In this document: positions 60,765-61,040 of the stretch, piece by piece
Layout: each line of letters begins with the position of its first letter
Numbering within the stretch: the stretch's first letter is position 1
Made by a program: the position numbers and the translations under genes
The notes under the pieces: generated by a model
What the model was told of the DNA's origin: nothing
The model's input: only the letters and a program-made list of their open reading frames with translations
Databases searched by the model: none
Source of the DNA: Escherichia coli
Lineage (GTDB): Bacteria; Pseudomonadota; Gammaproteobacteria; Enterobacterales; Enterobacteriaceae
DNA: 64,000 bases
Reading direction: 5' to 3' (one strand)
Assembly (NCBI RefSeq): GCF_030384885.1
Contig: NZ_CP128613.1

Positions 60765-61040
60765 TAATAGGGTTACGGTGTACCACGCCTGACTGATGAA
60801 CTGCGTGCTCAGAGTTACCACTTCAGCGCATAACCGTGGCAGCAGGCCCGGACAGAACAAACGGCTCAGGACATTATCGGTAGGGGACGTACTGGTAGTC
60901 TGTAAACTAAACCGACTGGGGCGCAGTATGCGGCATCTTGCCGTGCTGTTGGAGGAGCTGTGAGAACGTGGTATTAACTTTCGTGCTCTGACTCTACCAA
61001 TATTTGCCCAACAATCGGTGGACGAAAGCTGTAAAAGTAA
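60765..61040 (+). pseudogene. pinH: Decayed Pin/Hin-type serine invertase/resolvase fragment
   Basis: Translation gives ...PGQNKRLRTLSVGDVLVVCKLNRLGRSMRHLAVLLEEL*ERGINFRALT, matching the resolvase core (GDTLVVWKLDRLGRS...ELRERGINF) with an in-frame stop and no intact N-terminal Ser region. Confidence 0.6.

Follow-up and report, generated by a model that had tools for sequence, protein, structure and literature searches.

A serine invertase fragment between ypjCB and ypjA of Escherichia coli is very probably the inert pseudogene pinH, bordered by an IS3 remnant

In Escherichia coli the spacer between the gene for an orphan protein and an autotransporter adhesin gene carries a piece of a serine DNA invertase, which raises the question of what kind of element left it there and whether it ever controlled its neighbours. 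A preliminary description of 64,000 nt from contig NZ_CP128613.1 (assembly GCF_030384885.1; this whole stretch is called the window below) assigned a decayed invertase to positions 60765–61040, regarded it as the mark of a former invertible or mobile element and proposed that the adjacent adhesin may once have been phase-variable. Our analysis suggests, with a probability of roughly 0.9, that the feature is the E. coli pseudogene pinH, an inert relic of approximately 150–180 bp, which would retain codons 42–91 (perhaps up to ~100) of a phage-type serine invertase and would owe its present form to a history of three junctions. The coordinates of the relic and of the features around it are collected in the table.

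Features of the pinH locus and its surroundings in the window
Feature	Position	Strand	Basis or remark
tRNA ileY (tRNA-Ile2, CAU anticodon)	58188–58263	+	ARAGORN, which names it Met
ypjCB, 478 aa, intact; the "orphan protein" of the preliminary description	59020–60456	+	NCBIfam NF050179 YpjCB, E-value 6.5e-285
IS3 left terminal inverted repeat (TGATATTACCCATCAATA)	60749–60766	+	16/18 matches
Internal piece of IS3 orfB (InsF), codons ~58–83 (…YGVPRLTDELRAQSYHFS…)	60754–60848	+	IS3A nt 528–623
pinH pseudogene, inner piece of a serine DNA invertase gene of the Din family	60844–60992	+	corresponds to pinE nt 124–272, codons 42–91
In-frame TGA stop, lineage-specific, replacing an Arg codon of intact invertases	60961–60963	+	
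37-nt tail	60993–61029	+	perhaps decayed pin sequence to ~pinE nt 302
ymgJ-like leader of ypjA, 352 bp, paralog of the ymgJ/ycgI-upstream region beside minE	61030–61381	+	88.6% over 352 nt, E-value 4e-128
ypjA/ehaD autotransporter adhesin gene, 5' part, extending past the window	61412–64000	+	annotation of a 99.8%-identical strain

The window corresponds to the chromosome of strain 2013C-4282 (99.8–100% identity), and its core genes are ~98.7–99% identical to those of most E. coli. The gene order at its end is glaH-ygaQ-ileY-ypjCB-pinH-ypjA, in reversed orientation with respect to K-12 MG1655. From position ~55000 onward the GC content drops from ~55–60% to 29–45%, and pinH lies inside this low-GC accessory block beside the tRNA gene ileY, a landmark of the block that is annotated as tRNA-Ile in 2013C-4282 and as ileY in K-12. 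Both coordinates and annotation place the relic where the preliminary description had it, between ypjCB and a gene called adhesin-like autotransporter YpjA/EhaD in the 99.8%-identical strain and annotated as ypjA in K-12. Invertases of the Hin/Gin/Cin/Pin type are almost confined to phages and plasmids. Given this, the position of the fragment in a low-GC accessory block next to ileY and its fusion to an IS3 remnant, the view that it marks former mobile DNA stands.

Several other observations concern these surroundings. The ygaQ gene (alpha-amylase-like, 750 aa, 55374–57626) is intact in the window and a pseudogene in K-12. Only ~56–63% of 5,426 complete E. coli genomes carry the ygaQ-ileY-ypjCB-pinH-ypjA block (57300–61029). 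Strain KBN10P04869 lacks it: there, ygaQ is followed by copies of IS2, IS3 and IS1, a gene with ankyrin repeats and a type I restriction-modification system, and inspection of that locus revealed no invertase after ygaQ. The stretch from glaH to ypjA (54000–64000) is 4–12% diverged from K-12, depending on the feature: ileY and the ymgJ-like module are the least diverged, glaH is 94.5% and ypjCB 88.9% identical. The core region 30000–33000 (emrRA/ygaZH) shows only ~1.3% divergence from typical E. coli. The divergence of the glaH-to-ypjA stretch suggests either that diversity is raised locally or that the alleles are old. A GGGGC…CCCC hairpin with a T-rich tract (60617–60647) lies 3' of ypjCB; it is terminator-like and was not called by the consensus terminator scan. 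Elsewhere in the window, ARAGORN predicted antisense tRNA-Arg(tcg) genes on the minus strand (21703–21774 and 21977–22048) over the tRNA-Arg(acg) genes of the serV-argV cluster, which are probably spurious mirror predictions.

The similarity of the fragment to the serine recombinases is genuine. The frame from 60796 translates as ...SRPGQNKRLRTLSVGDVLVVCKLNRLGRSMRHLAVLLEEL*ERGINFRALT, and a Pfam search identified in it the N-terminal domain of Resolvase (PF00239; E-value 5.3e-11, 43.2 bits against a cutoff of 23.3), of which only profile positions 43–101 out of 145 are covered. NCBIfam yielded only sub-threshold matches to large serine recombinases. K-12 PinE aligns with the window at 39 identities in 53 positions (tblastn, E-value 1e-23), and pinE matches 60844–60992 at 82% across 149 nt (blastn, E-value 4e-39). 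This homology begins at pinE nt 124 (codon 42); codons 1–41 of PinE, including Ser9, are absent from the locus rather than decayed. Din invertase genes have a Fis-dependent recombinational enhancer in their 5' part, most of which is deleted here. The preliminary description was thus right that the N-terminal catalytic serine region is missing, but it overlooked that the C-terminal half, comprising the remainder of the catalytic domain, helix E and the DNA-binding HTH, is gone as well: pinE homology past nt 272 (at most ~302) was not found in the window, and the ymgJ-like module takes over after the tail. Approximately 50–60 of the 184 pinE codons survive. The tail itself is roughly colinear with pinE nt 278–302 in the K-12 allele (1% of shuffles reach its score), while in the window allele its similarity to pinE is not significant (52% of shuffles do so); it is probably further decayed pin sequence, an assignment that is not firm. 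Of the interval originally proposed, the invertase is firm only in 60844–60992, possibly decaying to ~61022. The remaining 5' part (60765–60843), taken for a decayed N-terminus, turned out to be an out-of-frame IS3 transposase remnant, to which the beginning of the open reading frame (MNCVLRVTTSAHNRG…) also belongs.

This IS3 remnant, which is annotated neither in the K-12 record nor by PGAP in 2013C-4282, retains a recognizable left end. The pattern TGATCTTACCCAGCAATA, searched for with up to 3 mismatches, has a single match in the whole window, with 2 mismatches (chance expectation 0.02); the K-12 allele matches the left end of IS3A in 15 of 15 positions, and the TGA just before the repeat mirrors the IRR terminus. 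The adjoining orfB piece was detected by blastn at 82.5% over 97 nt in the window (E-value 3e-21) and at 88.6% in the K-12 allele (E-value 3e-28), by tblastn with InsF (E-value 4e-7 for the window, 2e-11 for K-12) and, weakly, by the Pfam profile HTH_21 (E-value 0.11). As the left repeat meets orfB nt ~528 across two similar TTACCC-type 13-nt imperfect repeats, the arrangement indicates an internal deletion of ~510 bp, which would have taken place between these repeats. The right inverted repeat was not found in the window, where only one IR match occurs; the element stops at nt ~623. Because 5 nt (60844–60848) are common to the IS3 and the pin homology, IS3 nt ~623 is fused directly to pin nt ~124. 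A candidate hix half-site (GTTTTTTTGATAT at ~60742) was rejected, as it is made up of a T-run and the left terminal repeat of IS3.

On the 3' side, the relic is followed by the ymgJ-like leader, which is present in 5,323 of the 5,426 genomes and ends ~30 nt ahead of the ypjA start codon. Its paralog lies at ymgJ/ycgI beside minE, where there is no invertase; the K-12 ycgV locus, also considered as a source of the paralog, gave no match. A 5' module has evidently been duplicated and is now common to both autotransporter loci. PGAP places a frameshifted "ATPase" pseudogene inside the leader (equivalent to window 61226–61346).

The locus is colinear in 3,038 of the 5,426 complete genomes, and in every E. 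coli genome inspected PGAP labels the fragment an incomplete "recombinase family protein". We aligned nine lineages (the window, K-12, O157:H7, O104:H4, NCTC9699, strain 789 and three others) and found all three junctions to be identical, with divergence of up to ~12% and a one-base difference in a T-run as the only indel; the alignment has a mosaic appearance. The in-frame stop reported in the preliminary description exists, but only in part of the species: TGA at 60961–60963 occurs in the window and GPEC403 among the nine, as well as in 2013C-4282, which matches the window, whereas K-12 and six other lineages have TGC (Cys), and pinE has CGC (Arg). In one other lineage the pin part contains a different stop. 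The 55-codon ATG-initiated open reading frame present in the window lineage (60796–60963) is interrupted by TAA in K-12 and most other lineages and hence is not conserved. Within the pin part 29 of the 149 sites are variable, distributed over the codon positions as 8:11:10. In comparison with K-12 the relic is 87–90% identical (pin part 89.9%), against 95.7% for the adjacent ypjA leader. The shared junctions, the even spread over codon positions, the lineage-specific stops and the greater divergence of the relic relative to the leader together indicate an old event, after which the relic would have drifted neutrally. None of the E. coli lineages sampled has an intact invertase gene at this locus. 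A scan of genome contigs from other species with YpjCB peptide patterns, derived from the divergent window allele, returned one contig only, which is E. coli-like, and says little beyond E. coli. This contig (DEQI01000374.1, 2.8 kb, from the metagenome-assembled genome "Planococcaceae bacterium UBA3370") carries the K-12 allele of ypjC/ypjB-pinH and is almost certainly E. coli contamination.

A source among the cointegrate or multimer resolvases (Tn3/gamma-delta or plasmid res type) would make the fragment the mark of a former transposon or plasmid and not of an invertible segment, in keeping with the fact that Pfam recognises only the generic Resolvase domain and that thousands of plasmid recombinases match weakly. 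We consider such a source highly improbable, as the best tblastn matches (the Fels-2 invertase, Hin, PinE, Cin and P2-like invertases, with 74–80% amino-acid identity) are all annotated or characterised invertases, and residues 42–91 of the Gin invertase (PDB) score 55.6 bits (E-value 1.7e-14) against 21.8 bits for gamma-delta resolvase. At the nucleotide level, too, pinE is joined by invertase genes of P2-like phages (74–82% identity), and the pinH stretch is the only part of the ypjCB-ypjA spacer with phage DNA matches. Judging from these similarities, the parent enzyme belonged to the Hin/Gin/Cin/Pin (Din) invertase subgroup. The persistence of the fragment could also be taken as a sign that it was co-opted, either as cis-regulatory DNA for ypjA or ypjCB or as the source of a small protein from the 55-codon frame; its boundaries are indeed unchanged in ~3,000 genomes, and the window lineage does have the ATG-initiated frame. 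Yet the TAA that breaks this frame in most lineages, the even distribution of variable sites and the greater divergence of the fragment than of the leader next to it all speak against this reading, a promoter and terminator scan of 60400–61500 gave counts no higher than in shuffled sequence and no excess of plus-strand promoter sites, and simple linkage within the block would account for the retention, so that we see very little chance of co-option.

The proposal of former phase variation holds that the invertase once flipped the promoter or 5' end of ypjA/ehaD (or ypjCB) and that the fragment is what remains of this switch. In favour of this, the fragment is immediately upstream of ypjA and points the same way, it belongs to the invertase and not the resolvase subgroup, and Hin controls a surface antigen. 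We nevertheless regard a former switch as very unlikely. Hix/gix-like crossover sites of ~26 bp, which had been anticipated in the flanks, were not found: the 26-bp hix/gix/pix consensus has no matches with up to 3 mismatches anywhere in the 64-kb window, nor in the ypjA loci of K-12 and 2013C-4282 searched over their whole length, even though the same pattern recovers both e14 pix sites flanking the P segment with 1 mismatch each. Inverted repeats around ypjA are only short, scattered and 72–93% complementary, as expected by chance. Comparison with other strains, which might have disclosed an intact Pin-like gene, revealed the same truncated fragment in every E. coli lineage examined. Moreover, pin meets the ypjA leader only at a junction by which pin is itself cut short, and the paralog of the 352-bp leader at ymgJ/ycgI exists without an invertase. 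The segments that known Din invertases flip are those of phage tail fibres or flagellin, and the known E. coli adhesin switches depend on tyrosine recombinases (FimB/FimE) or on Dam/OxyR. It is extremely doubtful that an ancestral Escherichia island had a working serine-invertase switch over ypjA/ehaD or ypjCB, of which intact versions might survive in unsampled relatives; if true, it would amount to adhesin phase variation of a kind not known for autotransporters. A literature search on the regulation of YpjA returned nothing directly useful.

We therefore return to pinH as an inert relic. Lacking a start codon, the Ser9 nucleophile, helix E, the DNA-binding HTH and recombination sites, it should neither be made as an enzyme nor be able to act on DNA. 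Its history may have begun with the insertion of IS3 next to or inside an invertase-bearing element, most likely a P2/e14-like prophage or a plasmid. An internal deletion between the two TTACCC-type repeats would then have joined the left terminal repeat to orfB nt ~528, and a second, illegitimate deletion would have fused IS3 nt ~623 to pin nt ~124 at 5 nt of overlapping homology. A third break would have brought pin nt ~272–302 up against the ymgJ-like leader. The junctions can be read directly from the sequence; which event came first and which element was the donor are inferred. As the search turned up neither an intact ancestor nor a donor element, the history is a reconstruction. All three junctions appear to be older than the divergence of those E. 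coli lineages in which the ygaQ-ileY-ypjCB-pinH-ypjA block is present, with neutral drift since then.

In sum, pinH is a catalogued pseudogene that records old mobile-element traffic, involving a phage-type invertase and IS3. The low-GC block in which this took place, next to ileY and ssrA, is plastic. Only its fine anatomy is new here, namely the unannotated IS3 remnant with its terminal repeat and the exact breakpoints common to diverse lineages. The locus shows the neutral decay of a pseudogene in clean form and can serve as a stable marker of the block, and it provides no grounds for viewing ypjA/ehaD as phase-variable.

Among known systems, the closest counterpart is the annotated pseudogene pinH (b2648) of K-12 MG1655, which occupies the same place (ypjA-pinH-ypjB/C-ileY-ygaQ) with the same truncation points and IS3 junction and is ~90% identical; identical gene order and a colinear alignment establish the orthology. 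The two alleles are ~10% substitutions apart, K-12 having TGC where the window, like 2013C-4282, has TGA, and they differ in their neighbours, as ypjCB (split into ypjC and ypjB in the K-12 annotation) and ygaQ are broken in K-12 but intact in the window. Searches of the literature for pinH yielded only gene lists and the unrelated "PinH" of the O157 prophage CP-933H. With PinE of e14 and the other members of the Din family (Hin, Gin, Cin, Min, P2/Fels-2) the fragment shares the core …GD.LVV.KL.RLGRSM.HL…EL.ERGINFR.LT, and its identity amounts to 74% (amino acid) and 82% (nucleotide) with pinE and to 80% (amino acid) with the Fels-2 invertase and Hin. Unlike these intact invertases, it keeps only codons 42–91 of 184, without Ser9, helix E, the HTH, crossover sites or an invertible segment, and all pinH alleles aligned have Asn for the conserved Asp of the catalytic motif DRLGR. 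From IS3 (InsE/InsF) the locus keeps the left terminal repeat and orfB nt 528–623 at 82–89% identity; relative to the complete element this is a scrap of ~100 bp, with the ~510-bp internal deletion and with neither a right end nor an intact transposase.
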